From contig JBAZVE010000001.1 in the NCBI GenBank assembly GCA_041661045.1, forward strand, positions 120,001-152,000: DNA of 32,000 nt, read 5' to 3'. The notes under the pieces are model-generated. The model saw only the letters and a list, made by a program, of their open reading frames with translations, was not told the DNA's origin and searched no databases. Source of the stretch: Candidatus Saccharimonadota bacterium (GTDB lineage: Bacteria > Patescibacteriota > Gracilibacteria > UBA1369 > 2-02-FULL-48-14). Numbering within the stretch: the stretch's first letter is position 1; every line of letters starts with the position of its first letter. The position numbers and the translations under genes were made by a program. Shown here in pieces: positions 1,341-22,938 of this stretch.

Positions 1341-1931
1341 ATGGCATTGAACAGTAAAAACAGCGTGTTAATCCTTAGTCTCGGTACATTTTTGGCTTTA
1401 GGCTTTCTTTCCTCGAATTTTCTTTTTAAGAATAGGGCTATCCCAGTGACTAACGAGCCACCTACTACGGTGTCTTTTCATGCCTTAAGTATTGCGCGCG
1501 ATCTTGATTTGTACACACAGAGTGCCTCTCTCATTGTAATTGGCAGGGTAACAAAGGTGGGTGAACCTTATCTGGAAGATCAAGGTCTTGGTAGTAGACA
1601 AGAGGTCGAACTGGAACTGAGTGAAGTTCTGAAAGGAGATAGAAGTATGACCACGGTAAATGTGCTTGTTCGCGGCTATGAAATCGTTGAAGTTGATGGA
1701 GATGAGGCAACCATTATCCCCGGCAATGAGCCACCTTTATTTGTAGCGGGAGAGTATGTTCTCCTCTTCTTAGGAACAACCAGTCAGGGGGAATATGTGT
1801 CTTTTGCAGGCCCTTATGGTAAATACTTAATCGACAACGAGTTGAATGTGAGCAGCAGTGGCGACTTTTCAATGTCTCTCGAGGAGCTAAAGGAAAAGAT
1901 TAATGCAGTTTTGCAGTCTCAGCCCTTCTAA
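1341..1931 (+). CDS. Hypothetical N-terminally membrane-anchored protein, probably co-transcribed with the metalloprotease
   Basis: 196-aa ORF starting 17 nt after the protease stop. N-terminal hydrophobic segment VLILSLGTFLALGFLSSNFLF. No recognisable family. Confidence 0.55.
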   Translation: MALNSKNSVLILSLGTFLALGFLSSNFLFKNRAIPVTNEPPTTVSFHALSIARDLDLYTQSASLIVIGRVTKVGEPYLEDQGLGSRQEVELELSEVLKGDRSMTTVNVLVRGYEIVEVDGDEATIIPGNEPPLFVAGEYVLLFLGTTSQGEYVSFAGPYGKYLIDNELNVSSSGDFSMSLEELKEKINAVLQSQPF

Positions 1932-1972
1932 AAACCTGGTTTTTTTGGTATAATTAGGGGATTCATTTTGCT
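1923..1972 (+). promoter_or_regulatory. 50-bp repeat copy 1 with extended -10 promoter (TGGTATAAT) and palindrome AAAAACCTGGTTTTT
   Basis: cccttctaaaaacctggtttttttggtataattaggggattcattttgct is identical to 15596-15645. TATAAT at 1949-1954. It overlaps the stop codon of 1341-1931 and precedes the gene at 2013. Confidence 0.6.
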
Positions 1973-2012
1973 ATGTATGATGTTATTTTGCATTGCTTTT
2001 TAACATGATATA

Positions 2013-3233
2013 GTGCAAAATGAAATCATGGATGCTCAAGAGCCACAATACCATCGATCTATAGAACTCCCATCGAGCAGCTTTCTGCTCTTTGGACCAA
2101 GAGGTGTGGGTAAAAGCACATGGCTTCGTAAGACACTACCGAAGGATTCGCTTTTCATTGACCTTTTACACTATCCAACTTATTTAAGCCTAAGTAGAGA
2201 CCCAAGCCATCTGGAAGCCTTAATCAACACCAAAGATCCTCCACAGTGGGTTTGTATCGATGAAGTACAGAAAATTCCGCCCATTCTAGATGAAGTCCAC
2301 CGACTCATTGAGACTTATGGACTTCGTTTTGCCCTGAGTGGATCATCAGCCCGTAAACTCAAAAGAGGTGGAGCAAATCTATTGGCTGGCAGAGCATTGG
2401 CAATGGAAATGGAAACATTTTGCAGCGAAGAATTGGGGGAAGACTTTCATCTGGAAGAATCTATAGAGTGGGGAACCCTGCCCTTGGTCCAGAAAAAACT
2501 CAAAGAGAAGCTGACCACCGAAGCCATGGACACGCTTGAGACCTATGTATCGAGCTATCTTCGTGAAGAAATTAAGGAAGAAGGATTGGTACGCAAAGTA
2601 GATCCATTTTTGCGTTTTCTGGAAATAGCGGGCCTCATGAATGCCGAACAAATAAATTTGAGTGCTATAGCTCAACAAGCTGGCGTTCCAAGAAGTTCTA
2701 CAGAAACATACTTTTCAATTTTAGAAGACACCTTACTTACCTTTCGCTTACCAGCTTATCGACCACGAGTAAAAGTCCGGGAACAAACTCACCCCAAGCT
2801 CTATTGGTTTGATTCGGGAGTGGCCAGAGCGGCGGCCGGACTTTTGCGTGACCCAACAGACTCCACCTGGCAAGGTAAAGCTCTGGAGACTCTGATCTAT
2901 CATGAGCTCAGGGTCTACAATCAAAAATCCGGAAAACACAGGTCGATTTCATTTTATAAAACCAGCTCCGGACAAGAAATCGACTTTTTGATAGAAACTC
3001 AAAAAACAAGCTCCGACCAAAAAGCCGAAGTGGTACTCATAGAAGTAAAAAGATCAAAAACATGGAATGCCCGTTGGGAAAATCCTATGCGTTCCCTGAT
3101 GAGAATGAATAAAATGAGAGTTAAATCCGCTTATGGTGTGTATATGGGGAAAGAGTCTCTGTTTAAAGAAAATTTATCTATTCTACCAGCCGAGATTTTT
3201 TTAAAAAAACTCCATCAAGGAGAAGTTTTTTAG
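2013..3233 (+). CDS. AAA+ ATPase of the AAA_14/DUF4143 type (COG1373-like)
   Basis: Walker A LLFGPRGVGKSTWL, Walker B-like WVCIDEVQKIP, C-terminal DUF4143-like region. GTG start at 2013 (alternative ATG at 2028). Confidence 0.8.
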   Translation: MQNEIMDAQEPQYHRSIELPSSSFLLFGPRGVGKSTWLRKTLPKDSLFIDLLHYPTYLSLSRDPSHLEALINTKDPPQWVCIDEVQKIPPILDEVHRLIETYGLRFALSGSSARKLKRGGANLLAGRALAMEMETFCSEELGEDFHLEESIEWGTLPLVQKKLKEKLTTEAMDTLETYVSSYLREEIKEEGLVRKVDPFLRFLEIAGLMNAEQINLSAIAQQAGVPRSSTETYFSILEDTLLTFRLPAYRPRVKVREQTHPKLYWFDSGVARAAAGLLRDPTDSTWQGKALETLIYHELRVYNQKSGKHRSISFYKTSSGQEIDFLIETQKTSSDQKAEVVLIEVKRSKTWNARWENPMRSLMRMNKMRVKSAYGVYMGKESLFKENLSILPAEIFLKKLHQGEVF

Positions 3234-3400
3234 GTGACGAACTTAGCTTTTGGCGGGCTTACGGCTCGTTCTTGATTCCTCCAAATCTCCCCAAATTGTG
3301 GCCTAGGCCAGGTTAGCACATGCGGTAATGTTTTTGTGCAATGTCAAATGCTTGAGAAATGGCTTATAGAAGCTATTATTTGTTCTTCCTGTGAAATTCT

Positions 3401-3991
3401 ATGCTCTCAAAAGAACAGATGCTGCAAGCGCTCACTTCCCTGGGGTTCAGACCCAATGAAGCGCAGGTGTACCTCACGGTTTTAGAGCTCAAAGAAGCGC
3501 TCCCCGGTACTGTGGCGAGACGCTCCAAGCTCAAACGGTCCACCATTTATCTCCTTCTGGAGGGCTTGGAACAAAAGGGGCTTTTACAAAAGGTGCGGAA
3601 AAATGGAAATATCGTGTTTAAGGCCGGCTCACCGGAATCTTTTATTGCTCAAGAACAAAAGAAAAGCGAAGTACTCCAATCTTCCCTCAAGGCTCTCAGC
3701 TTTTCTCTCCCAAAGCTCTTTGCGACCTATGCTGCGGAGCTTTGTCCGTCAGAAATAACCATTTTTAAAGGAGAAAAAGGAGTCGAAAAAATTCTTTCGG
3801 AGTTGGGTAGGGACCGCAAGATGCTCTTGAGCTGGGATGAAAATGGAAAACGACAAAAAGGCATCATTGGTGTGTTTAATATTTATAGAGACAAGGTGGC
3901 CATTGTATCCCTCAAAGACGAGCTTGGTGTTCTCATTCAAAACGAACACATCGCCAAGGCCCAACGAGCGGTTTTTGAGAATATTGGATAA
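3401..3991 (+). CDS. TrmB-family HTH transcriptional regulator
   Basis: N-terminal wHTH typical of TrmB: LGFRPNEAQVYLTVLELKEALPGTVARRSKLKRSTIYLLLEGLEQKGLLQKV. Confidence 0.8.
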   Translation: MLSKEQMLQALTSLGFRPNEAQVYLTVLELKEALPGTVARRSKLKRSTIYLLLEGLEQKGLLQKVRKNGNIVFKAGSPESFIAQEQKKSEVLQSSLKALSFSLPKLFATYAAELCPSEITIFKGEKGVEKILSELGRDRKMLLSWDENGKRQKGIIGVFNIYRDKVAIVSLKDELGVLIQNEHIAKAQRAVFENIG

Positions 3992-4182
3992 CTACAGCCT
4001 GTTATCTCCCTTCAACACCAGCCAAACTCTTTTAAGTTACCTACAAATTTTTTGAAATGAAAGCCAGCGTACCAGAAGTATAGCCTTTTGTTATATTTCT
4101 TGTTGGTGTGACGGATTTTTATACCCTATCCAAATTCCACCTTTGAATTTATAAGTTTGATTCATGACTATTAGAAGTCTGT

Positions 4183-4530
4183 TTATTTTTCAAATGCAAG
4201 CCCTAAAAATTCTTTTTTTGAGCCAGTAAAAATTGTGCCTTTTTTATTTAATGTTTTATTAATCTTGCCTGTTTTTACTGCAATGTAAGCTGCATCACAT
4301 TCGGGGTCGTAACTTATACTGAGTTCATCTCCTTTTGAAAAATGAAAATCATTTACTATACATTTAGACTTGGTTTGATCCATCATGTCCAAAAGCTCTA
4401 TCCCTATAGTTTCACCAAGTGAATCTAAATCCACCATCAAATCAATGTTTTCAATTTTATGTGCACCCTCTGATGGTTTAAACTGGATTGAAAAAGTTTT
4501 ACCATTTTCAACAATATTTGGGTATTCCAT
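4183..4530 (-). CDS. DUF2283-like small protein (two degenerate units)
   Basis: Motifs LSISYDPECDAAYIAV and DLDSLGETIGIELLD resemble the DUF2283 pattern (YDxExDxxYI ... GxxxGIExL). Confidence 0.5.
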   Translation of the reverse strand: MEYPNIVENGKTFSIQFKPSEGAHKIENIDLMVDLDSLGETIGIELLDMMDQTKSKCIVNDFHFSKGDELSISYDPECDAAYIAVKTGKINKTLNKKGTIFTGSKKEFLGLAFEK

Positions 4531-4566
4531 GTGGGCTATGAGTTACTTAACTGTACAGGCTTGCCA

Positions 4567-4878
4567 CTAAGCAATGGGCAACAAAATGTATCTAGTCAAA
4601 ACCACACAAAGCAACGCGTATAGAACTATTAAAAGAACTTCTTCTCCTCTACTGATCGTTATCAACTTATTTTTTTTCTTATAGTAGTGAAAATAAAATC
4701 CGAAGAGAAATGCCATTAATAAAACAATACTTAATCTAACTAGGTTTGCCGCATCTATGTTTTCATAACTAAATCTATTGAACACGAGATAGCTAAGAAT
4801 AGAGAAAAAGACAAAGCCAGACACGAAAGTGGCACATAGAAGCAGCAAGTGTTTTAGAGCTTTGAAATGAGATTTCAT
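4567..4878 (-). CDS. Small membrane protein (about 3 TM helices)
   Basis: 103-aa ORF with hydrophobic stretches LLLLCATFVSGFVFFSILSYLVF, LVRLSIVLLMAFLFGFYF and VLLIVLYALLCVVL. No family recognised. Confidence 0.5.
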   Translation of the reverse strand: MKSHFKALKHLLLLCATFVSGFVFFSILSYLVFNRFSYENIDAANLVRLSIVLLMAFLFGFYFHYYKKKNKLITISRGEEVLLIVLYALLCVVLTRYILLPIA

Positions 4879-4896
4879 AATTTAGTTGTTAGATAT

Positions 4897-5289
4897 TTAT
4901 TCAACAGTATCGGGAACTTTTAATTCTTGGCCAACTTGAATCTGATTAGGGTAGTTGGATTTTGCTAGCGCATGAAGTTTTTTCGACACAGTCCTGGCTT
5001 CATCCCATGTGTAGCCAGTCATAGTATGCATTTCTTGTGGATCAACGATTTCTGCTGATATGTCAAAAATCTTCGACATAAGAATGATGTCATTTTCATC
5101 TATGCTAATCTCGATTACTTCATCTTCAGATCGATGACTTCCTATGAAATCACTAATCCTCCTACATTCTTCTTCTGATAGTTGGGTCCTTTGAATAAGC
5201 TCACTTAAACCAAAGGCGCCCAAGGGTACAGCTATAACTCTAATTATAATTTCTAATTCATCATGGGTAAGTAAAATTAATTTTGTCAT
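4897..5289 (-). CDS. Hypothetical acidic cytoplasmic protein with a weakly LysM-like C-terminus
   Basis: 130-aa ORF starting 18 nt upstream of the next gene's start. C-terminus ...SNYPNQIQVGQELKVPD resembles the end of a LysM domain. Confidence 0.5.
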   Translation of the reverse strand: MTKLILLTHDELEIIIRVIAVPLGAFGLSELIQRTQLSEEECRRISDFIGSHRSEDEVIEISIDENDIILMSKIFDISAEIVDPQEMHTMTGYTWDEARTVSKKLHALAKSNYPNQIQVGQELKVPDTVE

Positions 5290-5447
5290 AATGTGGTGAG
5301 TTAAAAACTATTAATGCAAATCATTGTCAAAAAAATCCTTTTCTTTTTCAGGTTGGAAGGCTGTCCCCTGATCTACATTGTTCGGATCGTGGATCACCAC
5401 AATAGTAATGATTTAAAAAATACCCGAGATTCCCTGCGAAAGTTTAT

Positions 5448-5747
5448 TTAGCTACTCTGTAACTTTACTCCACAGCGCGGGCAATGTTTAGGGTTAAAAT
5501 TCTTCCTCAAGTAAAATTCGCAAGCTGGGCAACGCCAATTTTTGAATGTAAAAACAACGGACCCCAAGAACATAAATACAAACAACATAGTCCAAGCGTC
5601 GTTTGGGGCACCAAGGAAAGTAATCCCCTCATCACTATTATTGAAAAATTGGAATCCAAAAACAATCACAAGCATCAGTGGCGTGACTATATAATATTGT
5701 TTTCGCTTTCTTTCCAGAAAATTTTGGATGATTTCGTACTCCTGCAT
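5448..5747 (-). CDS. Small membrane protein with a C-terminal zinc ribbon
   Basis: Two hydrophobic helices, then CPACEFYL...HCPRCGVKL (CxxC-N13-CxxC). Confidence 0.55.
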   Translation of the reverse strand: MQEYEIIQNFLERKRKQYYIVTPLMLVIVFGFQFFNNSDEGITFLGAPNDAWTMLFVFMFLGSVVFTFKNWRCPACEFYLRKNFNPKHCPRCGVKLQSS

Positions 5748-5756
5748 AATGTGGTC

Positions 5757-6296
5757 TTATTTTCTTGCTCTAAGTAATAATTTTACTTGAAGTAAATACA
5801 TTGGAATAAGTAACAACAATGAAATGGGAGATAACACTACTGTTACAAAAGAGAAGCCAAATATCAGTTCGACCCAGCCCGTTTTTTTCGTCAACCCCCC
5901 CATGGGATTTTTTAATTGGATTAAACTATAACCATGTAAAATGGTAAGCAAACCATATGTTATTCCAAAAGCTATATAAGCAGACGGATACTCATCGAGT
6001 TTTGAGGGATATGTGCTAATTTTTGGTAGATATACAAGAAGATCGTATGAAATATTAACCAAGATCAATAAAAAAGAGGAAACAGCGGTAACTTTACTAT
6101 TTTGTATTTGCCCCAAATAAATGAAGCCAGACAAAAACAGAGCATAACTAACGATTGATAAGAAAATCAGGGGGCCTAAGTTGAACTCAGGGAAATATGA
6201 ACCACCCTTGGCTTCTACTAGAAGTGTTAAAGGCACGCTTGAGATTAGTGATACTAACCCCGAGAAAGCAGCTAATTTAAAAAGATTTTTCTTCAT
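5757..6296 (-). CDS. Polytopic membrane protein; candidate immunity partner of the orphan RHS tip
   Basis: 179-aa ORF starting 7 nt after the stop of the orphan cassette. Five to six hydrophobic segments. No family recognised. Confidence 0.55.
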   Translation of the reverse strand: MKKNLFKLAAFSGLVSLISSVPLTLLVEAKGGSYFPEFNLGPLIFLSIVSYALFLSGFIYLGQIQNSKVTAVSSFLLILVNISYDLLVYLPKISTYPSKLDEYPSAYIAFGITYGLLTILHGYSLIQLKNPMGGLTKKTGWVELIFGFSFVTVVLSPISLLLLIPMYLLQVKLLLRARK

Positions 6297-6303
6297 AGTG
6301 CAT

Positions 6304-7248
6304 TTAGTTAGTATTTTCTTTTTCCGATTCTACCGGTATTCGAATCTCTTCACCAACATTAATAGTATTTGGATCTTCAAATCCATTAAACTCTGCAATT
6401 TCTTGATAGTCATCTCCAAAAAGTTCGTACATCGTATCGCCAGGTTGAACTGTATATACAGAATAGCCTCCCTCTTCATTATATGTAAGATCTTTTTCTT
6501 CTCCAAAAACAGTAATTAAGGTTTGTTCATAAACAAACATCCCAATTCTTACATACCAAGGTGCTTGGCCCTTTGTTGAGTGCCAGAGTACATCGTCCAT
6601 ATTGTTACTTATATCGCCATCATTGTGGTCGTTAGTTGGTCCGGAATTTATAAGGTCGCCAGAGTCACCTGCAGAAGGGATATCGCTAAAAAATGTTAGT
6701 AAATAACTCACAAATATTCCGATTGGAGTTTCTCCATCCGGATCTATATAGACAATTGGGTTATTTAAAGAATAAGAATAAAAATTCAACATCTGTGGGT
6801 CGAAGATTTTATTTTTCTTTAGAAATTCATTCATATCATTCGTGAATGTGAATTTCCTTTCAGCAAGGTCATCCAACTGTGCCGGATCCTGGCTGGAGAA
6901 TCTTCCTATCTCACTGTCATACCACCGGGCTTCGAAGTAGTAGAGGCCGAGGTCTTCATCGAGCTCTTTGTCTGTGAAGGAGTGCTCTGCGGGAGGCTCT
7001 CCGGTGCCGTCGTCCAGGGGAGTGTTTTGGAGCTCAGAGCCGTAGGGATAGTAGTCGTAAAGCTGGGTTACAAAACCATCCTCGTTCGTGATGAGGGCGG
7101 TTCCTCCCAAGTGGTCCTGGTGGAAATAGGAGAGGACTCCGTCTTCCAGTGCAGCCACCCTCTGGCCCCCGGCGAAGAGATAGCTGGTGAGGGTGCCGGG
7201 AGACACCGGTTCCGTTCCGCTGCCATCCGCTTTGCCGCGGAGTTCCAT
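6304..7248 (-). CDS. Orphan RHS C-terminal cassette: RHS core end plus a 141-aa variable tip with a LysM domain
   Basis: The frame stays open and homologous to the main RHS up to 7398 (NFNTAHTYSWNIKNQLASSGSKSFSYDASG...), bounded by an in-frame TGA at 7399-7401. The first ATG is at 7248. Core FTDKELDEDLGLYYFEARWYDSEIGRFSSQDP...NFYSYSLNNPIVYIDPDGE. LysM YTVQPGDTMYELFGDDYQEIAEFNGFEDPNTINVGEEIRIP. Confidence 0.8.
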   Translation of the reverse strand: MELRGKADGSGTEPVSPGTLTSYLFAGGQRVAALEDGVLSYFHQDHLGGTALITNEDGFVTQLYDYYPYGSELQNTPLDDGTGEPPAEHSFTDKELDEDLGLYYFEARWYDSEIGRFSSQDPAQLDDLAERKFTFTNDMNEFLKKNKIFDPQMLNFYSYSLNNPIVYIDPDGETPIGIFVSYLLTFFSDIPSAGDSGDLINSGPTNDHNDGDISNNMDDVLWHSTKGQAPWYVRIGMFVYEQTLITVFGEEKDLTYNEEGGYSVYTVQPGDTMYELFGDDYQEIAEFNGFEDPNTINVGEEIRIPVESEKENTN

Positions 7249-7433
7249 GAAGCGGTTGATGATGTAGTCCGTTGTGCCTTTTGTGCTGTCTGCCGTTTTG
7301 TAGCGGCTGCCTGAAGCATCGTAGGAGAAGGATTTAGAGCCGCTGGAAGCCAGCTGGTTCTTAATGTTCCAAGAATAAGTGTGGGCGGTGTTGAAATTTC
7401 AAGGAGCGATGATCTGAATTGATGGGGCACTTT

Positions 7434-8054
7434 TCACCATGAAAAAGAATTCTTAATGATTTTACCCAAAATATCCAACCAATTCAGCTCAGTGTCTGCA
7501 CCCACTTCGTAACAAGTACGAGCTTTCAAACAATCCTCTCCCGTGAGATCCATTTCAAACACCGCCCGATCAGTTTCAGGTATCTCTTCTAGAGATAAGT
7601 AATATTCCGCTTCACCACTTGTTATATCAAGCACAACAAACCTGGGGAGATCATTTTGGTCATCATACATTAGAATCTTTCCATTCGAAGTATCCACTCC
7701 TCCCCAGTAGCTTATATTTCCCTCTGCATCCGTTCCCGTACCCCTCTCAACATTTCCTTCTATGTATAGTTTATCTTCATGAAGTCTATACCAGTACAAG
7801 TATCGAACCAAATAATCATCATACTTAAAATCCATCAATTGGAGTTTCTCCATATCTGTGGGCCATCTCCAAACTTGGAACCTTCCATCACTAAAATGAA
7901 TATATTTATCTTGATCGTATATCTCATACTTTAAATTGGGATCTTTTTCAATGAAGATATAGGTTTCCAAGCAACCCCTAAAAAAGACTACTCCTAGAAG
8001 GACAAGGGCGATAATACCAACTGTCTTAGCCGTTTTTCTAGAAAGCTTATTCAT
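7434..8054 (-). CDS. N-terminally anchored 206-aa protein; candidate immunity protein of the main RHS tip
   Basis: ATG at 8054-8052 lies inside TATGAATAA, overlapping the RHS stop (8049-8047). Begins MNKLSRKTAKTVGIIALVLLGVVFFRGC. The longer 7434-8123 ORF would overlap the RHS gene by 77 nt. Confidence 0.65.
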   Translation of the reverse strand: MNKLSRKTAKTVGIIALVLLGVVFFRGCLETYIFIEKDPNLKYEIYDQDKYIHFSDGRFQVWRWPTDMEKLQLMDFKYDDYLVRYLYWYRLHEDKLYIEGNVERGTGTDAEGNISYWGGVDTSNGKILMYDDQNDLPRFVVLDITSGEAEYYLSLEEIPETDRAVFEMDLTGEDCLKARTCYEVGADTELNWLDILGKIIKNSFSW

Positions 8055-11000
8055 AGGTGTAATCAAAGTTAATGGATTCAGTAAATTCAGATATGAAGCC
8101 TGTGGTTTGTGCCGCAGCCGCACCAGTATTTAGTGCATCATATGTAGCCCCACCACTGTATTCAAATCCTGCATCGAAATGATACTTATCTGAAATGGAC
8201 ACATCTAAATCCCACGCACCATTTTCCAATTGGCTTCCCGTAACCTGCATCCCGGCTGTACCAATGGACATTTTCAAATCGGATGTTTCATTGAGACGCA
8301 GTCCCCTCTGCCCATCGGTACCTTCAATGGAAGTTTGCCCATTAAACTCTGCATTAGAAACAATTTCACCAACCTTGGATTGAAACTCATCCGTCCCCTT
8401 AATTGAATCAATCACATTCCCCCATTCAGACTGATTCCCTTCATTGATGCTCACGCTTCCGGGGTTCAGTTCAAGGGAGTGGGATAAGAGACTTGATGTG
8501 ATTGGGTTTGAAAACTGAAGACCCCATGCCAGTGTTAAACCTGCCGTATAGATTTCCCGCACACCTGGCACAAAAAATGTTGCCAGGTAGGTAGTTGTAG
8601 ATAACTCTCCCGTTGGATCTGTAATATTTACCGGATTATTCCTGCTGTAACTGTAGAAGTTCAAACTCTGCGGATCTGTGAGAATTTGGAAGATGCGGTC
8701 ATCCAGCTGGGCCGGGTCCTGGCTGGAGAAACGGCCTATGGCGCTGTCATACCACCGGGCTTCGAAATAGTAGAGGCCAAGGTCTTCATCGAGTTCTTTG
8801 TCGGTGAAGGAGTGGTCGGCGGGGGCAGGGCCGGAGCCGTCGTCCAGGGAGCTATCGAGGAGCTCGGAGCCGTAGGGATAGTAATCGTAAAGCTGGGTGA
8901 CGAAGCCTTCTTCGTTGGTGGTGAGGGCGGTGCCTCCCAAGTGGTCCTGGTGGTAATAAGTGAGGGCAGCATCTCCCACAGGAGTTTCCGGAGGGATTTT
9001 AAGTGCGGCCACTCTTTGGCTTCCCGCAAAGAGGTAATAGAGCTCCGTTCCATCGGAAGCGGGTTCGGAGCCGCTGCCATCCGCCTTGCCACGGAGTTCT
9101 CCGTAGCGGCCGAGGTAATAGTCCACGGTTCCCCTGGCAGAGTCCACCGTCTTCCAGCGGGTACCAGTGGCATCGTAACTGAAGGATTTACTTCCACTGC
9201 TGCTGAGCTGATTCTTTCTATCCCAGCTGTAGGTGTGAGCGGCATTGCCGGTGAGGTTTCCCTTGCTGTCGTAGGTGTATGCTATGCCATCCACAGAAGT
9301 CACGGCGTGGGGATTGGCGCCGCTGTGAGTGCCGGAAGAAGAACCGGTGCCCTCATAAAGCAGGCTGCCAATGTCGCTCTTGTACACCATGTTTCCAAGG
9401 CTGTCATACTCATAAGTCTCACTGTAGTCTCCTCCGCTTAGGCCGGTGGTCTCTGCGGAGAGCAGGCGATTCAAGTCATCGTAGGCATAGGAAATGGTTT
9501 TGGCCGTGGGGCTTGTGCTCGTGTCCAGAATCTCCAAAATGTTCCCGACATTGTCGTAGCTGTAGGAAAGATCCTGAATTTCCGTCCAGGAAGTGCTGGT
9601 GAAGAGAGGATCATAAATGCCCGTGGTGCTTTTGCCTGTGAGGCGATATGCCTGAGCGGGGTCGTAGACATTGGTGGTCACGGTGCCGTTCCCGTAAGTG
9701 GTGCTTGCCGTTTGGGAAGAGGGAGAATAGTCCATGTCGGAAACGATGTCTCGTAAAGTAGCGCCTGTCCCTTCGGTTACTTTTTCAAGAAGACCGGCTG
9801 TGTTGTATTCGTAATTTACGGTTGCTGCAAAAGAGGGATACGCAATCTTTTTCAGACGGCTGAGGACATCGTATTCATATTGAAAAATATACGGGATGGT
9901 GTCGAGCTTTCTTGTTTCTTTTGCAAGGTTCCCGAGGCTGTCGTATTTATCATTGATCACCGAGAAATTTGTCATCAAGATTTTGTGGATTTTGCCTACC
10001 CCATTGATCGCAGTATCGTAGACAAAGGAAACATCTTTGGCAGAAGTTCCGGCATCCCAATCTTCAAAAACCATCCGATTGAGCGGATCGTAGCCCCATG
10101 TGAGCGACTGGCCCGCGGGGTCCACTTGGGAGACTAGATTCCCATTTTTATCGTAGGTGTAAGTCCATTCTCCAAAATCCCCTTCGGCCGGATCATGGAG
10201 ATCTTCTTGCAGGGTTTTGCGCCCCAAAGAATCGTAGCCGAAGTTTCTTAAGTTGCCCTGGCTATCGGTAAGAGTGAGGAGCAGGCCACGGTCATCATAA
10301 TCGTAAGTCGTTGTGTAAGTATCTATTCCATTCTTCTCTCGTACGGCACTCAAAGCTCCGGCGGCGTTATAGAGATAGGTTTTGCTGTTTCCATTCCCAT
10401 CCGTGACCTCTTCCATCCATGGGGAATAGTCATGTGTTTCCGTAGAGACGGGGGTCACCACGGTGAGGGGCCGACTGAGTGCATCGTAAGACATTTCTGT
10501 GCTGTACGCAGAGGCGTCTCTACCAAATATGCTGCTTGAAGTTTCGTAAGGAAAACTTTGGCTGGCAAGGTTTCCCCGTTCGTCGTACCAAAAGTCTACG
10601 GTCGTGTAGACCCCGCCCTCTGCTGAAGTATTGCTTTGGATGGCCCGTCCGAGGCCGTCAAAATAACTTACGGTTTCCATGGAAATGCCATCCACCGTGC
10701 TTTCCGTGGAGACGGAGCTTGGGAAGGAGTCGTCATCGTAGCTGCTTGTAGACACCAGCACCGAAGTCCCAAAGGTGGGATGCGGAATGGAGCTTGTTAA
10801 CACTCGCCCAAAGCCGTCGTAAGTGTTTGAGCGCGTAAAGCCATTTGCGTCCACGGAGCTGAGGAGTTGTCCGGTAGCTGCTTCGTATACGGTACTCGTT
10901 GTTTGTGAAAGGGCATTCGTTGTGCTTGCTGGGTAAAGATTGTTTGAATCATAGTTCATGTCCAGCGCGTTTCCCTTGGCATCCACTACTCGCTCAACGA

Positions 11001-13821
11001 GTCCATAAGCATTGACTGTGTAGGTGGAGCCAAACCATTGATTCCCTTCACTGAGCCAAGATTTTTCACTCGTAAGATTCCCCGTGGAAACATTCCCGAG
11101 CGGGAGGCCGTCGTAGGTGCGACGGCTTTTAGCGATTGCGGAGCCGCTTGCATCTTTCAAGATCTCTTCTGAGATTTTGTTGCGAATTAGCCCGGAGCTG
11201 TCCGCTGCGTACGCATAGGATAGTACGGTTTTTTCGTGCGCATGAGGAATATCCACAAATCCTCCGCTGCTGTCCGCCGCCACTTCACCGAAGTTTGTAA
11301 CTTTAAATATATTTCCGTCCGCATCGTATTGATAAGTTGTAGCTTTGTCCTTGTGAGCGCTGCCACCGAAGTCCATGGAAACACTGGCGGTTTTGTACAC
11401 AAAATCATTTTCATAGCCAAGATCCAAGGTTTCCCACGAGTCCCAGACTCTTTGGAAAAGATTGCCGGACTCATCATAAACTTCCGTTTTATAGGCGCGG
11501 CCGATGAGTGGAAACTCTTCTTGATGGTAATAAGAAATGGTTTCCTTTCCCTCCTCACTGCGCGACACCGTTTCGAAGCCGGCGAACTGACGGTTCATTT
11601 CATCTTCATACAAATATTTTCCACCGGAGTAGTCGTAGGTGATGGTGCTTTCTTCCCCAAGGCCATCCGAAGTGGTGACACTGGAGACCAAGTTCATCAC
11701 AAAGGGCATGGCGGGGTTATCGAAAGAGGTGGAGGGCGCATAGGAAACTGTGGTTTCCGCCCCTTTGGAGTGATGAATGGTTTCGAGCAGTTCTGGAGTG
11801 GCGTTGTTGAGATACATTCTTTTAGTGCTGCCCCCATGGGACTCAGAAAAAACCACATCCGCAAAGTTATCCCCATCCACATCAAAAATCTGAACGCCTT
11901 TTGGGGTTCTATAACCTTCTGCAAAACTCACGGGGACCGTATAAGCACTGCCTTCGTCCCATCCCGTCCCATCTCCCTTATTAATATATACGGCATTCTC
12001 AATGCTGGAATCTGCCGAGTAAACAATGTCCGCTAAGCCATCTCCATTGACATCCACCATTTCTGCAACATCCATCATGATATCTCCGCTATCCCAGAAA
12101 TAGATTGGGATGCTATAACTACTTTCTTCAGTCCACCCCGTTCCATCGCCACGATTGAGATAAACAGATTGGTAGGGACTCCCTTGATACCTTGATTCTA
12201 TAATATCCACCAAGCCATCTCCATTAATGTCTGCCAGTTTTACACCCTCGTCATCCTCTCCTTCAGAATTAAAAATAACTGGTATGGATATCTCGCTCAC
12301 TTCTTCCCATGTTTCCATTTCTGGATTGAAGAGGTAGATATTCTTTGAAATACCACCGTGACTCAAAGACTGAACAAAGTCAGGGAAAGAGTCTCCATTG
12401 ATGTCCATAACACGAATCCCCTCATCGGCCATATAACCACTATTGAACCTTAGTGGAATCGAGTAAGTGGTGTCTTCAACCCAAGAGGAAGACGCCTCGT
12501 CAAAGATGTAGCCTACCCGAACATCGCTAGAGGATTCCATGGAAGCATAAACGATATCGTTGAATCCATCTCCGTTCAAATCACTCATACGCGTACCCCT
12601 CATATAATTTCCTCCTGTTCCCCAAAAAGAGACAGGAATTGAATAGCTTGTATCTTCGGTCCAGCCTGTTCCATCGCCGTTATTCACATAGACCTCTCGG
12701 TAAGTTCTTCCACTATCGTAGTAGGAATTGAGAAGATCCATAAATCCATCCCCATTGACATCACTGATGTCCACACCTTTATCTTCATTTCCTCCCTCCA
12801 CATAAAAATACACCGGGATCTCGTAGCCGCTTACTTCTTCCCAGCCTTTTTCGCTCTCGGAATATTCAAAACTTGTAGGGTGGAGCGTGCTTACTTCACC
12901 AGTCGTGCTTTGAGCGGATTCCGTGACAGAAGAGAGTAAGGATTGAACGGTGTCGTCCGGGGTGGAGTAATCGAGACTGTATTTTCGAGTCCATACCCCA
13001 TCAACAAATGCGGTGATCTCACTGACTCGATAATCGGTTTGAACTTCAAAGCCGGTATTGTAAAAAGAAGAAACATCTTCTCGGCTCTCCAAAGTGAATT
13101 CAATGGCAAAAGATCCATCGGTGGATCCATGTCCGGTATAATGGATGCTTTCTGGATAAATTTGCCCATTCTCTTCAAAGTATTCGTATCGTACAAAGTT
13201 ATCATTGGAGTCTCGCACTTCCTCAAGCATCCACTTGTAGACGCGGCTTGCATCTGCCGGGTCCTCTTGCCTACTTTCAGCGGCTGCCCCAAAACTATAA
13301 ACGGTTCCGGACTTATCTGTAACAGACCAAGAGTTGTCCGAATTGAATGAGTAATTTAGAAAAGAGCCATCCTCGACTTTACTGCTGTACTCCCCGTAAG
13401 GACTTCCACTTATGGGAACAAGCTCTCCACTGAGTGAAGAACTAAAATTGTTTTCGTCGTACATGGTATTTACACCGGTTTTGTTGAGTCGCGTGATTGC
13501 AGGGATACCCAGTGACCAACCGGATCCATAAAAACTATCCCAGCCCATGCCTTGGCTGTTGTAGTTTAGGCTGAGAGAGGGCTGCAAGCCACTGCGCCCC
13601 GCAGGCAGAGTGAGGGGAAGAGAATAAGTGAAAGCTCCACTAAAAGAGCTGTCTTGCGCACCTTGGTCCAATCGAACCCGACTGTTATTGATTTCGTAAG
13701 TCTGATCATAAAACCCTTCGTTGTTATTTGTAGCATCTGCAAAGCTTCTAGGCGCGAAACTTGTGAATGCAAAAAAACTCAGCAGAAGGGTGGATAGGGC
13801 TCTCACTTTTTGGCTGAGCAT
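8047..13821 (-). CDS. Secreted SpvB / FG-GAP / RHS-repeat polymorphic toxin (TcB-TcC-like fusion), 1,924 aa
   Basis: Signal peptide MLSQKVRALSTLLLSFFAFTSFAPRSFA. SpvB-like FTYSLPLTLPAGRSGLQPSLSLNYNSQG..GWSLGIPAITR. Six DxNGDGxxD FG-GAP/VCBS repeats (aa ~350-660). Many YD repeats. RHS core end ...YYFEARWYDSAIGRFSSQDP...NNPVNITDPTGE. Confidence 0.95.
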   Translation of the reverse strand: MLSQKVRALSTLLLSFFAFTSFAPRSFADATNNNEGFYDQTYEINNSRVRLDQGAQDSSFSGAFTYSLPLTLPAGRSGLQPSLSLNYNSQGMGWDSFYGSGWSLGIPAITRLNKTGVNTMYDENNFSSSLSGELVPISGSPYGEYSSKVEDGSFLNYSFNSDNSWSVTDKSGTVYSFGAAAESRQEDPADASRVYKWMLEEVRDSNDNFVRYEYFEENGQIYPESIHYTGHGSTDGSFAIEFTLESREDVSSFYNTGFEVQTDYRVSEITAFVDGVWTRKYSLDYSTPDDTVQSLLSSVTESAQSTTGEVSTLHPTSFEYSESEKGWEEVSGYEIPVYFYVEGGNEDKGVDISDVNGDGFMDLLNSYYDSGRTYREVYVNNGDGTGWTEDTSYSIPVSFWGTGGNYMRGTRMSDLNGDGFNDIVYASMESSSDVRVGYIFDEASSSWVEDTTYSIPLRFNSGYMADEGIRVMDINGDSFPDFVQSLSHGGISKNIYLFNPEMETWEEVSEISIPVIFNSEGEDDEGVKLADINGDGLVDIIESRYQGSPYQSVYLNRGDGTGWTEESSYSIPIYFWDSGDIMMDVAEMVDVNGDGLADIVYSADSSIENAVYINKGDGTGWDEGSAYTVPVSFAEGYRTPKGVQIFDVDGDNFADVVFSESHGGSTKRMYLNNATPELLETIHHSKGAETTVSYAPSTSFDNPAMPFVMNLVSSVTTSDGLGEESTITYDYSGGKYLYEDEMNRQFAGFETVSRSEEGKETISYYHQEEFPLIGRAYKTEVYDESGNLFQRVWDSWETLDLGYENDFVYKTASVSMDFGGSAHKDKATTYQYDADGNIFKVTNFGEVAADSSGGFVDIPHAHEKTVLSYAYAADSSGLIRNKISEEILKDASGSAIAKSRRTYDGLPLGNVSTGNLTSEKSWLSEGNQWFGSTYTVNAYGLVERVVDAKGNALDMNYDSNNLYPASTTNALSQTTSTVYEAATGQLLSSVDANGFTRSNTYDGFGRVLTSSIPHPTFGTSVLVSTSSYDDDSFPSSVSTESTVDGISMETVSYFDGLGRAIQSNTSAEGGVYTTVDFWYDERGNLASQSFPYETSSSIFGRDASAYSTEMSYDALSRPLTVVTPVSTETHDYSPWMEEVTDGNGNSKTYLYNAAGALSAVREKNGIDTYTTTYDYDDRGLLLTLTDSQGNLRNFGYDSLGRKTLQEDLHDPAEGDFGEWTYTYDKNGNLVSQVDPAGQSLTWGYDPLNRMVFEDWDAGTSAKDVSFVYDTAINGVGKIHKILMTNFSVINDKYDSLGNLAKETRKLDTIPYIFQYEYDVLSRLKKIAYPSFAATVNYEYNTAGLLEKVTEGTGATLRDIVSDMDYSPSSQTASTTYGNGTVTTNVYDPAQAYRLTGKSTTGIYDPLFTSTSWTEIQDLSYSYDNVGNILEILDTSTSPTAKTISYAYDDLNRLLSAETTGLSGGDYSETYEYDSLGNMVYKSDIGSLLYEGTGSSSGTHSGANPHAVTSVDGIAYTYDSKGNLTGNAAHTYSWDRKNQLSSSGSKSFSYDATGTRWKTVDSARGTVDYYLGRYGELRGKADGSGSEPASDGTELYYLFAGSQRVAALKIPPETPVGDAALTYYHQDHLGGTALTTNEEGFVTQLYDYYPYGSELLDSSLDDGSGPAPADHSFTDKELDEDLGLYYFEARWYDSAIGRFSSQDPAQLDDRIFQILTDPQSLNFYSYSRNNPVNITDPTGELSTTTYLATFFVPGVREIYTAGLTLAWGLQFSNPITSSLLSHSLELNPGSVSINEGNQSEWGNVIDSIKGTDEFQSKVGEIVSNAEFNGQTSIEGTDGQRGLRLNETSDLKMSIGTAGMQVTGSQLENGAWDLDVSISDKYHFDAGFEYSGGATYDALNTGAAAAQTTGFISEFTESINFDYTYE
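8050..8604 (-). other. Variable C-terminal tip (185 aa) of the RHS protein, after DPTGE
   Basis: Sequence after DPTGE (LSTTTYLATFFVPGVREIYTAGL...INFDYTYE) has no similarity to the orphan tip beyond the first ~12 residues and matches no family I recognise. Confidence 0.7.
8605..9249 (-). repeat. RHS core-end block homologous to the orphan cassette at 6730-7398
   Basis: The protein alignment is continuous from AHTYSW to DPxGE. DNA stretches are near-identical, e.g. gtcataccaccgggcttcgaa(a/g)tagtagaggcc(a/g)aggtcttcatcgag. Confidence 0.85.
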
Positions 13822-13834
13822 AGCACATTTATTA

Positions 13835-13927
13835 AATTGCCCTTACTATTCTCCACTGCCCCCGCCCTTGTCCAGGCTTTCGGCACATTTACTGTCGTCA
13901 GGATTGGATGACAGTTTGTGGTTTAGA
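13835..13927 (-). promoter_or_regulatory. Upstream leader copy B (inverted copy of 611-702) in front of the RHS gene
   Basis: 13886-13927 is the exact reverse complement of 611-652. Diverged similarity continues to 13835, and the RHS ATG follows at 13821. Confidence 0.65.
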
Positions 13928-13985
13928 AACTGGACGACATGAGCTTTTAGGCGTAGAGTACACTTAAATTTACCCCTTCCCCCTC

Positions 13986-15584
13986 ATGAAAAATATTCTT
14001 ATTGCCCTTCTGAGTCTTATGCTTGCCGTCCCTGGTGTGCTGGCGTCCGCCAATGCTGATATGAGCGACTCTGAGCTGGGAGAATATTTTATATTTGAGA
14101 CGGGGACCTGGTGGGATTATGTGAATTATATAGACACCGCTTCCGACTACGACACCTCAGAGATTACTTTTGTGGATGATATTGAAGATGCCACGACGCG
14201 TGCAGAGAGACTTCCCTGCAGAATTTCTCAATGTTTTAGCGTGGGTATGGGGCAAATCTACATCGAGTACTTTATAGAAGATGGGAAAATTTACATGGAT
14301 ACTTACGACGGGTACGACACGAATGATTTTCTGGTTTTCTCTCTTGATGGACTCGAGGATGTCCAAGTTGATGCATTGTGGGGATATCTTTTGGGTTATG
14401 ACAGTTTGAGTGGTTACGAGACCAGCATGCAATGTAGTGTGGACTTCGGAACTTACGCCTATCAAGGCTACGAAGGTGATTCCATCCAACACACTTGCAG
14501 CACTTTCCTAAAAGGTCCGGATGAAGTGGAACACCAAGTGGTGAGCTCCGAGTACTACTTGAGAGGCGTTGGGAAAGTCTTAACCGAGACCAAGCTCTAT
14601 CAGGACGGCGAGTGGCAAATCACTTATAGCCTTGTGCTCAATGAAACCAGCGTTGATTTGGAGGAAGTTGAAGGTCTGACTGAAGAAGCGGATGGAAAGG
14701 AAGTGATCGATACGGTGGTGGAAGAAATGAATGAAGAAGAAGAGGAAGAAGAGGAAGAAGAGGTGGTTTTGGCGGCGGAAGAAAGTAGCTTCTCCGATGT
14801 CGAATCGGATCACGATAACTACGCAGCGGTTGAATATCTCTACGAAGAAGGTGTGATTGGAGGATATGAGGATGGATCCTTTAAACCTGAGAATACCGTG
14901 AATCGTGCCGAGCTTCTGAAGATTTTGGTGGAAGGCCAGGGCATCACACCGGATGCAGAGCTCTATAAAAACTGTTTCCCCGATGTCACTACAGACTGGT
15001 ATGCCAAATATGTATGCTACGCCAAAAGCCAAGCGTGGATTTCCGGCTATAGCAACGGATACTTTCTTCCTGCCGATCCTGTAAATAAAGTGGAGGCCCT
15101 CAAAATGCTGCTCAATTCTCAAAGTATTGAGATCACCGTTGGAGACCAAAGCTCATTTGATGACTTCTCTGAGAATGAATGGTTCGCCCCTTATGTGGCC
15201 AAAGCTCAAGCACTTGGGATTTTGGAGGAAACCGGCAGTAGTTTTCATGCCGATGAGGATCGAACGCGTGGTGGCATCAGTGAAAATTTGTATCGGCTTC
15301 TCTTGAGTCTTCAGGTTGATGGCGTCTCCAGCGCCATGTCTGAAACTACTTGTCTGCAATACGACGCTTCCTTCGACCTGGATGAGTTCGAAGCAGAAAC
15401 GGAGGACATTATGGAGGCGTACGGATTTGAAGACATTTGGGCGATCGATGCCTTTATTGACCAGATTAGGGGCCTGGATATCTTTGAGCTTCTGTCTGCC
15501 CAACTGGAGATGGACCTTGAAGAAGAGTGTGGAGAATCCGTTGATGATGCTTCCGCGCTGGCTGAGGCCATGTTGGAGGAATAA
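13986..15584 (+). CDS. Secreted cell-surface protein with three SLH domains and an acidic linker
   Basis: Signal peptide MKNILIALLSLMLAVPGVLASANA. SLH motifs FSDVESDHDNYAAVEYLYEEGVIGGYEDGSFKPENTVNRAELLKIL, FPDVTTDWYAKYVCYAKSQAWISGYSNGYFLPADPVNKVEALKML and FDDFSENEWFAPYVAKAQALGIL. Confidence 0.85.
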   Translation: MKNILIALLSLMLAVPGVLASANADMSDSELGEYFIFETGTWWDYVNYIDTASDYDTSEITFVDDIEDATTRAERLPCRISQCFSVGMGQIYIEYFIEDGKIYMDTYDGYDTNDFLVFSLDGLEDVQVDALWGYLLGYDSLSGYETSMQCSVDFGTYAYQGYEGDSIQHTCSTFLKGPDEVEHQVVSSEYYLRGVGKVLTETKLYQDGEWQITYSLVLNETSVDLEEVEGLTEEADGKEVIDTVVEEMNEEEEEEEEEEVVLAAEESSFSDVESDHDNYAAVEYLYEEGVIGGYEDGSFKPENTVNRAELLKILVEGQGITPDAELYKNCFPDVTTDWYAKYVCYAKSQAWISGYSNGYFLPADPVNKVEALKMLLNSQSIEITVGDQSSFDDFSENEWFAPYVAKAQALGILEETGSSFHADEDRTRGGISENLYRLLLSLQVDGVSSAMSETTCLQYDASFDLDEFEAETEDIMEAYGFEDIWAIDAFIDQIRGLDIFELLSAQLEMDLEEECGESVDDASALAEAMLEE

Positions 15585-19346: not shown

Positions 19347-20017
19347 TGTTTCCAGGGGTCAGAGGAATGGGTGATATGTGGACCTTTTAAGTACAGTGGC
19401 TCAACTGTGTTTTTTTCTTCCAGCTGCTCCACTCCGTGTGTCATCAACATCTCTCCAAGGGTCTGCAGTTCGTGACCTTCCACCACTCTCCACTTTTTTT
19501 CGAGTATGAGCGAGTGCAATTCTTCTTGCAGGGTTTCATTCAATTGTGCCACGACGCAAATGCCGCTTCCGTGCGGGTAGTCTTTGAGCAAAGGCGCAAG
19601 CATTCCCACCTTTATTTCTTCATCTTGGAATTGTACTCCGGCGTCCATGCGGCCTGCGTGCAAAATCACCAGGATCGGATCTGCAAGTGCCGCTTTTCTC
19701 CTTAAAAGCTCAAAGGTGTCGATGGCATAGAGCTTGGCGTGGAGCCCTTCCGCCAGAGCATTGGCAAAAGCAACTCCGGTACGAAGCGCCGTGAAGGAGC
19801 CCGGCCCTCGAACCACAATAATTTGCTTTATTTCTTCTTTTTGCGTGCCCGTTTCTTCCAAAAGTTTTTTTAAAAAAGCTGGTAATTCTTCCACCGCATT
19901 CCGTGTGTCGAGCCAAATTTTCTCGCTGATGAGCTCCCATTCGCCCGGACTGGCTGGGTTCTCACGCAAAAGCGCCATTTCGTGCTGAACCTGTGCGGTA
20001 TTGATGGCTAATATCAT
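19343..20017 (-). CDS. tsaB: tRNA threonylcarbamoyladenosine (t6A) biosynthesis protein TsaB
   Basis: ILAINTA..., IIVVRGPGSFTALRTGVAFANALAEGL. 4-nt overlaps with both neighbouring genes. Confidence 0.85.
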   Translation of the reverse strand: MILAINTAQVQHEMALLRENPASPGEWELISEKIWLDTRNAVEELPAFLKKLLEETGTQKEEIKQIIVVRGPGSFTALRTGVAFANALAEGLHAKLYAIDTFELLRRKAALADPILVILHAGRMDAGVQFQDEEIKVGMLAPLLKDYPHGSGICVVAQLNETLQEELHSLILEKKWRVVEGHELQTLGEMLMTHGVEQLEEKNTVEPLYLKGPHITHSSDPWKQ

Positions 20018-22851: not shown

Positions 22852-22938
22852 CTTGTTATTATAACATTTTTTGAGCCTTTTCTCAATGCGGCGATTGTGA
22901 TAAACTTCCCACACTTTTTATTTAATTACAACTCCCCC

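Follow-up and report, generated by a model that had tools for sequence, protein, structure and literature searches.

Orphan rhs/cdi modules have been described (PMC3150448). In Salmonella Typhimurium, the STM0292 rhs-CT(orphan)/rhsI(orphan) module combines a 5'-truncated rearrangement hotspot (RHS) core with a distinct C-terminal tip (CT) and an immunity gene (PMC3967940). The main and orphan copies share 522 bp at 95% identity and have been shown to recombine (PMC3967940). The Sec-exported WapA-type toxins, such as those of Streptococcus suis (PMC12704120) and Bacillus subtilis WapA, are also accompanied by truncated orphans with an incomplete Rhs core, termed WapA-CT2 orphans, and contain LysM within the system. 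Here, we describe an element of this kind from the minus strand of a 32-kb stretch of DNA (positions 120,001 to 152,000 of contig JBAZVE010000001.1; hereafter the window), part of a ~1.3-Mb contig from a code-11 bacterium of the Candidate Phyla Radiation (CPR), class Gracilibacteria. The element, at 7398-6304 and followed by two membrane-protein genes, is a real orphan rhs-CT/immunity cassette, and as such a known kind of element (PMC3150448; PMC3967940; PMC3482391). It has a new tip family, a two-gene membrane immunity candidate and a constant/variable junction at an unusual position, and its host is a CPR bacterium. The upstream gene encodes a Sec-secreted RHS cocoon protein of TcB/TcC-like type, for which the cassette probably serves as a silent spare tip.

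In order, the minus strand carries the main RHS gene of 1924 aa (13821-8047), a 206-aa gene (8054-7434), the orphan (7398-6304), a 179-aa gene and a 99-aa gene. This layout resembles the Salmonella STM0292 locus in that the orphan directly follows the main rhs gene and its (here putative) immunity gene in the same orientation, and in that the block shared with the main gene is of similar length (~520 nt). The orphan frame is open from 7398 to a TAA at 6304-6306, a total of 365 codons, and its residues 3-237 align with 9246-8572 of the main gene at 66% amino acid identity over 243 columns (tblastn, E 2e-91). With its own match to the Rhs-associated core model TIGR03696 as well (63.9 bits against a cut-off of 32.5), the truncated copy of the RHS core, colinear with the main gene, which a preliminary description of this DNA had reported, is well established. 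The core fragment (6868-7398) comprises 177 codons, 175 of which are homologous to the main core, with a GC content of 56% and a GC content at third codon positions (GC3) of 0.68-0.72. It includes the first Asp-Pro (DP) motif, RFSSQDP, and both motifs, RFSSQDP and IDPDGE, are present in the orphan. An N-terminal body, an export signal and a usable start are missing from the cassette. On its 5' side the frame is closed by an in-frame TGA (7399-7401), 32 nt past the TGA stop (7434-7436) of the upstream 206-aa gene and just upstream of the homology breakpoint at ~7392, where core homology starts (NTAHTYSW). The 13 codons between ATG 7440 and this TGA bear no resemblance to the main gene, and the earliest ATG, GTG or TTG in the orphan frame is ATG 7248, 50 codons in. 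The closing TGA and the lack of any earlier start codon had both been pointed out previously, with coordinates that are all correct within a base or two. The window locus is 100% identical over 11,973 nt in an independent Logan assembly (L001, SRR18595301), and therefore the orphan cassette is not an assembly artefact. A tblastn search with the last 500 aa of the main gene revealed no further orphan cassette in the window besides 7398-6304.

The point at which the constant core gives way to the variable module is sharply defined. Homology at the DNA level and GC content both break right after SQDPAQLDD (6868), with GC3 stepping from 0.68-0.72 to 0.16-0.34 in the orphan and from 0.65-0.68 to 0.36-0.50 in the main gene. 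The same residue (DPAQMD/D) marks the end of the 99-100% identical blocks in a related genome, L002 (GCA_964476745.1). The first part of the variable module (6730-6867) is AT-rich and contains a tip-family-specific loop (LAERKF...KNKIF) and a second Asp-Pro motif of its own, DPQMLNFYSYSLNNPIVYIDPDGE (IDPDGE). The loop, LAERKFTFTNDMNEFLKKNKIF, amounts to a net gain of 15 aa relative to the main copy and had been taken for an insertion in the core; the extra sequence is real, but it belongs to the variable module, because it lies 3' of the end of homology and is kept among relatives of the LysM tip. Since the module bears its own second Asp-Pro motif, the constant/variable junction lies ~45 residues upstream of the enterobacterial Rhs junction motif. 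Whereas the Salmonella junction is at PxxxxDPxGL, the one here comes after the first DP motif and precedes the DPxG cleavage motif by ~45 aa. The tip itself shows no alignment to the main tip beyond TFF. Other differences from Salmonella are the carrier, which is a Sec-signal SpvB/TcdB/RHS fusion rather than an Rhs protein linked to the PAAR/VgrG components of a type VI secretion system, the two membrane-protein genes in place of one soluble immunity protein, and the CPR host.

The preliminary description had held that long DNA stretches of the orphan and main cores are near-identical, which was not borne out. Aligned locally with gaps, 7388-6867 and 9242-8697 agree at 404 of 506 positions (80%), and codon alignment of the orphan fragment with the homologous segment of the main gene (8698-9246, minus strand) gives 74% identity in protein and 70% in DNA. 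In the codon alignment, 62-66% of nucleotides agree across the 5' half, and values of 80-89% are confined to the final ~260 nt. No exact match exceeds 23 nt (6936-6914, matching 8766-8744). Synonymous divergence is saturated in the 5' half (proportion of synonymous differences, pS, 0.755) and high in the 3' half (synonymous substitutions per site, dS, 0.66), with a ratio of nonsynonymous to synonymous rates (dN/dS) of ~0.14 overall. Given this synonymous divergence and low identity, the orphan core is evidently no recent duplicate, and its sequence points to an ancient divergence from the main copy, mostly under purifying selection. The divergence fits either a fragment derived from another functional rhs gene or a very long residence at this position. 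In terms of composition, GC3 is 0.65-0.72 in the last ~900 nt of the main core (8700-9620) and in the orphan core (6868-7398), as opposed to 0.38-0.59 in the rest of the main gene and 0.16-0.36 in the tips. The 3' core is therefore compositionally distinct in both copies, and may be of foreign origin or may have undergone GC-biased conversion.

Set against the Salmonella benchmark (522 bp at 95%), the block in this genome, at 80% (70% codon-aligned), falls far short, and recombination-grade homology is absent from the window but present in L002. In L002 a homologous main gene (1690-7646, minus strand) is found together with four orphan core fragments ~7 kb away (9950-14707, plus strand), and the main core and the four fragments agree at 99-100% over stretches of 184-293 nt. 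They lie as inverted repeats, a geometry that would permit a reversible inversion flipping the gene body onto another tip, although the arrangement may also be an assembly artefact at the repeats. A further indication of movement comes from the main-tip family itself (window 8050-8604), which occurs as a 5'-truncated orphan at 1359-2150 of the groundwater contig ERZ1292622 (L089), with 31% identity over the whole tip (E 3e-29), so that tips of this RHS lineage hold main and orphan positions in different genomes. With the near-identical repeats of L002 and the orphan of L089, the displacement-and-switching model is well founded for the lineage. The earlier idea of the orphan as a recombination substrate thus holds as a concept for the lineage, whereas in this genome it is weakened by the low identity between the blocks, which the preliminary description itself had named as part of what would speak against it. 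Judging from these alignments, tip switching is plausible for this RHS lineage and improbable in this genome now, and the window is a locus whose recombination handle has worn down. Recombination-grade identity is typical of active switching and is no requirement for orphan status.

The orphan tip ends in LysM, and its family is rare, with eight relatives and nine copies including that of the window. A word-indexed search covering 5.8 billion clusters returned four relatives in addition to the protein of the window itself. A hidden Markov model search of 1.84 billion representatives with a profile of the non-LysM part added one more (P0007) and found nothing outside the tip's own family except an irrelevant repeat protein (P0006), while a search with the core fragment contributed another relative (P0009), and a second copy was found within L002. 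A scan of metagenome contigs with the non-LysM profile gave no relatives and also missed the source contig itself, which places the lineage outside that collection. In a scan of genome contigs with the full tip alignment, the 80 loci among the matches listed were all generic LysM proteins, with patterns that fell inside LysM and were uninformative. All relatives are short open reading frames (ORFs), and all seven copies with readable upstream DNA (the window, L002a, L002c, L083, L084, L086 and L088) are 5'-truncated orphans behind another gene. The open frame kept upstream of the variable module in these seven is 190, 177, 115, 93, 64, 7 or 0 codons long, and each is closed on its 5' side by TAA or TGA (TAA in L002a, L083 and L084). 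Tip frames are intact in all nine copies (~140-185 codons) at 45-84% amino acid identity, with synonymous sites saturated in every pair but one (window and L085; dS 0.32), for which dN/dS is 0.25, the others giving 0.13-0.17. Because the frames are intact and dN/dS is low, the family is under purifying selection and not in decay. The notion that the cassette is a decayed duplicate, raised earlier as an alternative, is accordingly at odds with intact frames and dN/dS values of 0.13-0.25.

These relatives also bear on the rival explanation that survives best, namely that the cassette is an eroding relic. In such a case only the two membrane-protein genes would be selected, as orphan immunity against neighbours, and the toxin fragment would have been whittled from its 5' end and never reused. 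Ancient divergence of the core with no exact run above 23 nt is in keeping with this explanation, and the truncation points, which range from 190 codons down to a position inside the variable module (L088), look like progressive 5' erosion. Moreover, the tip was not found fused to a full-length gene, and in L087 a homologue of the membrane protein occurs with no LysM tip ahead of it. Neutral decay should nevertheless have left frameshifts or stops within the tips, but nine of nine tip frames are uninterrupted, dN/dS is 0.25 in the only unsaturated pair and the recombination blocks of L002 are still 99-100% identical. For these reasons we consider an eroding relic unlikely.

What the tip would do once deployed is harder to read. 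It spans 6307-6729 (minus strand) and consists of the 141 aa after DPDGE, with a hydrophobic N-terminal helix, an acidic linker rich in Asp, Asn and Gly in which DGD and NNxDD motifs are conserved, then a beta-meander and, at the C-terminus, LysM. The LysM domain (PF01476; 6334-6456, minus strand) occupies orphan residues 315-355 at the extreme C-terminus and scores 28.7 bits in Pfam (E 1.3e-6; cut-off 20.9 bits). An AlphaFold2 (AF2) model of the tip, built from a six-sequence alignment, has a mean predicted local distance difference test (pLDDT) score of 58, with 74-85 reached only at residues ~70-134 and ~80-85 in the LysM segment (89-132). It depicts a small beta-meander packed on LysM, a hydrophobic helix at residues 2-15 and a disordered acidic linker. 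The top matches of this model in a Foldseek search against the Protein Data Bank (PDB) are all LysM (4uz3_B, probability 1.00, E 0.011), and since the search returns LysM alone, the model offers no clue to the fold outside that domain. Together, the Pfam and Foldseek matches confirm the previously reported distinct 141-aa tip ending in LysM, and the modelled segment agrees with the beta-alpha-alpha-beta fold of that domain. From family membership we infer that the domain binds peptidoglycan or polymers of N-acetylglucosamine (GlcNAc).

A muralytic function, in which the tip would be a 141-aa peptidoglycan hydrolase targeted by LysM, had been suggested on this basis. LysM does often accompany wall hydrolases, and NCBIfam models for ActS, NlpD and an M23 hydrolase family match the tip, yet these matches span the LysM region only. 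The ~90 non-LysM residues match no Pfam family even at E<=5, no hydrolase domain of the lysozyme, amidase, NlpC/P60, M23 or transglycosylase kinds was detected in the tip in either Pfam or NCBIfam at that relaxed threshold, and among the 1.84 billion representatives the non-LysM profile stays within its own family. Outside LysM the family has just three invariant columns (N43, D45 and G76), which looks unlike an enzyme, the fold search returns LysM only, and polytopic membrane proteins as immunity candidates suggest a target at the membrane level. We therefore regard a muralytic tip as quite improbable. As far as the sequence allows, peptidoglycan binding by the tip is supported, whereas muralytic activity is without support. 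The reading that we favour, with low confidence, is that of a non-catalytic toxin, bound to the wall and acting at the membrane or on lipid-linked precursors. This would be consistent with the few invariant columns, with the membrane-embedded immunity candidates and with the non-catalytic, pore-forming and peptidoglycan-binding tips of polymorphic toxins described by Zhang et al. (2012). Section 36 of that paper deals with non-catalytic C-terminal toxin domains, among them the two-helix W-TIP and OmpA-type peptidoglycan-binding domains at the extreme C-terminus (PMC3482391). The tip described here resembles the tips of that section, to which it has no sequence relationship, in its small size without signs of an enzyme, its hydrophobic helix and its C-terminal peptidoglycan-binding domain. 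The same treatment contrasts OmpA, always at the extreme C-terminus, with LysM, which it handles as an adhesion domain, and a tip ending in LysM is not described there (PMC3482391). The position of LysM also sets this system apart from WapA, in which LysM repeats belong to the N-terminal region that anchors the protein to the wall of the producer, whereas here a single LysM lies at the C-terminal end of the cleaved tip and so would act on the wall of the target.

The cassette is completed by two membrane-protein genes. The first (5757-6296, minus strand) starts 7 nt past the stop of the tip and encodes a polytopic protein of 179 aa with four to five hydrophobic or transmembrane (TM) segments. 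The second (5448-5747, minus strand) encodes a 99-aa protein that has two TM segments and ends in a CPxC...CPxC zinc ribbon. The preliminary description was right about a polytopic membrane-protein gene 7 nt after the tip, but missed this second conserved gene. Homologues of the 179-aa protein (35-43% identity) are encoded directly behind LysM tips in L002 (twice), L083 and L086, where the contig ends after the membrane gene, and homologues of the 99-aa protein (35-38% identity) hold the same position as here in L002 (twice) and L083. In L002 and L083 the two membrane-protein genes overlap by 14-35 nt. The conserved unit thus consists of three genes: one for the tip, one for a polytopic membrane protein of ~180 aa and one for a two-TM zinc-ribbon protein of ~100 aa. 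The 179-aa and 99-aa proteins are probable immunity proteins of the LysM tip. Searches of Pfam (including relaxed thresholds), NCBIfam and the families of the collections with both proteins returned nothing beyond generic zinc ribbons. A homologue of the 179-aa protein is also encoded at 3163-3717 of L087, behind a different orphan tip and that tip's 127-aa membrane protein and with no LysM tip ahead; it represents either an orphan immunity gene that stands alone or a chimera of graph assembly. Promoter and terminator scans of the locus gave counts equal to those in shuffled sequence, that is, at chance level. The best promoter-like site (6505-6478, TGGAGA-16-TATAAT), which lies inside the tip, was dropped as evidence as it is not conserved in relatives.

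The silent state of the orphan depends on TGA 7399-7401 being a stop, which the database annotation contradicts. GenBank entry MFA6023720.1 is a 378-aa product that starts at ATG 7440, within the overlap with the stop of the upstream gene, and reads this TGA as Gly under code 25, whereas the JGI and Logan models of the orphan are 314 aa from ATG 7248. Code 25 (UGA=Gly) was considered since databases label the organism Candidatus Gracilibacteria, and was ruled out by TGA statistics. TGA is never in frame among the 8,604 codons of 20 window genes (which hold 647 GGN glycine codons), whereas the two remaining frames contain 183 and 327. Of the six window genes that end in TGA, five extend by just 1-27 codons under code 25, while the sixth, the 206-aa gene, would gain a 121-codon extension into the orphan in a different frame. 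Because in-frame TGA is absent and these extensions are short, TGA 7399-7401 is a genuine stop and the window uses code 11. The 378-aa model most likely arose from the taxon label, and the GenBank annotation of this metagenome-assembled genome (MAG) was probably made with the wrong table throughout. With respect to starts, a Shine-Dalgarno (SD)-like motif was seen at none of the 22 window start codons inspected, the upstream regions of which are merely AT-rich, suggesting that this organism initiates translation independently of SD motifs. An internal start conserved in L086 and L087 (M/V-E-L at 7248) was entertained and rejected, as other orphans are truncated downstream of that position. The weakest alternative, an independently translated protein (378 aa from ATG 7440 under code 25, or 314 aa from ATG 7248) acting inside the cell in a toxin-antitoxin-like manner, as reported for Salmonella rhs orphans, can claim that GenBank annotates exactly such a product, that the frame is intact and under purifying selection, and that a missing SD before 7248 is no evidence either way because no window gene has one, but we hold it to be very improbable given that TGA is a stop, that relatives are closed by TAA (L002a, L083 and L084), that no start position is shared across the orphans and that the product would have no signal peptide, whereas LysM acts outside the cytoplasm.

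Under the preferred explanation of a silent spare tip, the toxin part would not be produced at its present location. The two membrane proteins would be produced via read-through from the main operon or from some promoter, and would protect the cell against relatives that deploy the toxin. Deployment of the tip would require homologous recombination with the core of the main gene, and since the repeats are direct this would remove ~1.83 kb, and with it the main tip and the putative immunity gene of that tip. Such recombination should be rare in this genome, as the shared block is strongly diverged. Once exported and cleaved, the tip would probably be non-catalytic at the target envelope, with LysM holding peptidoglycan and the target of the hydrophobic helix and beta-meander being either the membrane or lipid-linked precursors of the wall, which would fit immunity candidates that are membrane-embedded. 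This is the weakest step of the proposed mechanism. Several observations weigh against this explanation. The searched collections yielded no full-length RHS gene ending in this LysM tip, so that deployment was never observed, even indirectly, although fused copies could hide inside clusters represented by proteins with other tips, and both the word index and the clustering lowered search sensitivity. The main and orphan blocks are too dissimilar for RecA to recombine them efficiently. The tip has no recognisable toxin domain in Pfam at E<=5, NCBIfam or Foldseek, which makes its toxicity putative, and the AF2 model is poor for tip residues 1-60. Lastly, expression of the immunity genes is without promoter support, with scans at chance and the sole good site unconserved. 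The silent spare tip could also be extended into a more ambitious picture, that of a novel wall-anchored, non-enzymatic toxin family acting on the membrane, with a two-protein membrane immunity, which reduced-genome CPR bacteria of the code-11 Gracilibacteria class would carry nearly always in silent form and deploy by programmed homologous recombination. In that picture, direct arrays such as that of the window would undergo deletion or duplication, while L002-type loci, where the main gene faces a four-cassette array, would undergo reversible inversion. In this complete form we find it doubtful.

The remainder of the locus gives an indication of the carrier and of the cell that would use it. 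The main gene (8047-13821, minus strand) encodes a Sec-type signal peptide, SpvB, FG-GAP, TcdB_toxin_midN, RHS repeats, an Rhs-associated core and a 185-aa tip, with Pfam matches for SpvB (7e-23), FG-GAP_3 (3e-22), TcdB_toxin_midN (5e-20) and RHS_repeat (2e-29) and a TIGR03696 Rhs_assc_core match of 69.7 bits. The main tip itself gave no Pfam match at relaxed thresholds. Because of this domain set and the Rhs-associated core, its product is best read as a fused TcB/TcC-like RHS cocoon protein. The TcB-TcC (BC) cocoon of ABC toxins was reportedly described by Busby et al. in 2013 and Meusch et al. in 2014, and the main gene resembles it in having SpvB, TcdB_midN, FG-GAP beta-propeller repeats, an RHS shell and a core with two Asp-Pro motifs. 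It differs from TcB-TcC in being a single fused polypeptide with a Sec signal, and no TcA-like gene was recognised among the scanned window ORFs. The immunity-type neighbours and the orphan cassette point to interbacterial rather than anti-eukaryote use. The 206-aa gene (7434-8054, minus strand), the start of which (ATG 8054) overlaps the 3' end of the main gene, encodes one N-terminal TM segment and has no match in Pfam or NCBIfam; solely from its position, we infer that it confers immunity to the main tip. The RHS locus is flanked by a gene for an S-layer homology (SLH)-domain protein (13986-15584), with a 966-aa Amidase_2/SpoIID protein encoded further along (20014-22914), and both are consistent with a walled, S-layer-bearing CPR cell. 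On the other side, the region 4567-5289 contains a 130-aa ORF (5289-4897, minus strand) that ends in a LysM-like last strand, PNQIQVGQELKVP, and matches the LysM tip in BLASTP at E 6e-4 over 13 residues, followed by a gene for a 103-aa protein with three to four TM segments (4878-4567, minus strand). These ORFs may be another degenerate tip/immunity remnant or small genes without any relation to the cassette.

While orphan rhs cassettes are textbook elements in enterobacteria, this locus displays the same logic in a ~1.3-Mb CPR genome with a Sec-secreted TcB/TcC-like RHS protein. It also shows that the GenBank gene model rests on a genetic-code assignment contradicted by the sequence, an error that is likely to recur across the MAG. 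Of most interest are two threads that extend partly beyond the window, namely a LysM tip family that is exclusively orphan and the possible inversion switch of L002. The window (80%) and L002 (99-100%) form a natural pair for examining how long silent cassettes remain recombination-competent. Finally, the cassette adds an uncharacterised tip family in which only the C-terminal LysM is recognisable and which is paired with two membrane proteins; if toxic, this tip would be a rare peptidoglycan-binding, probably non-catalytic RHS payload.

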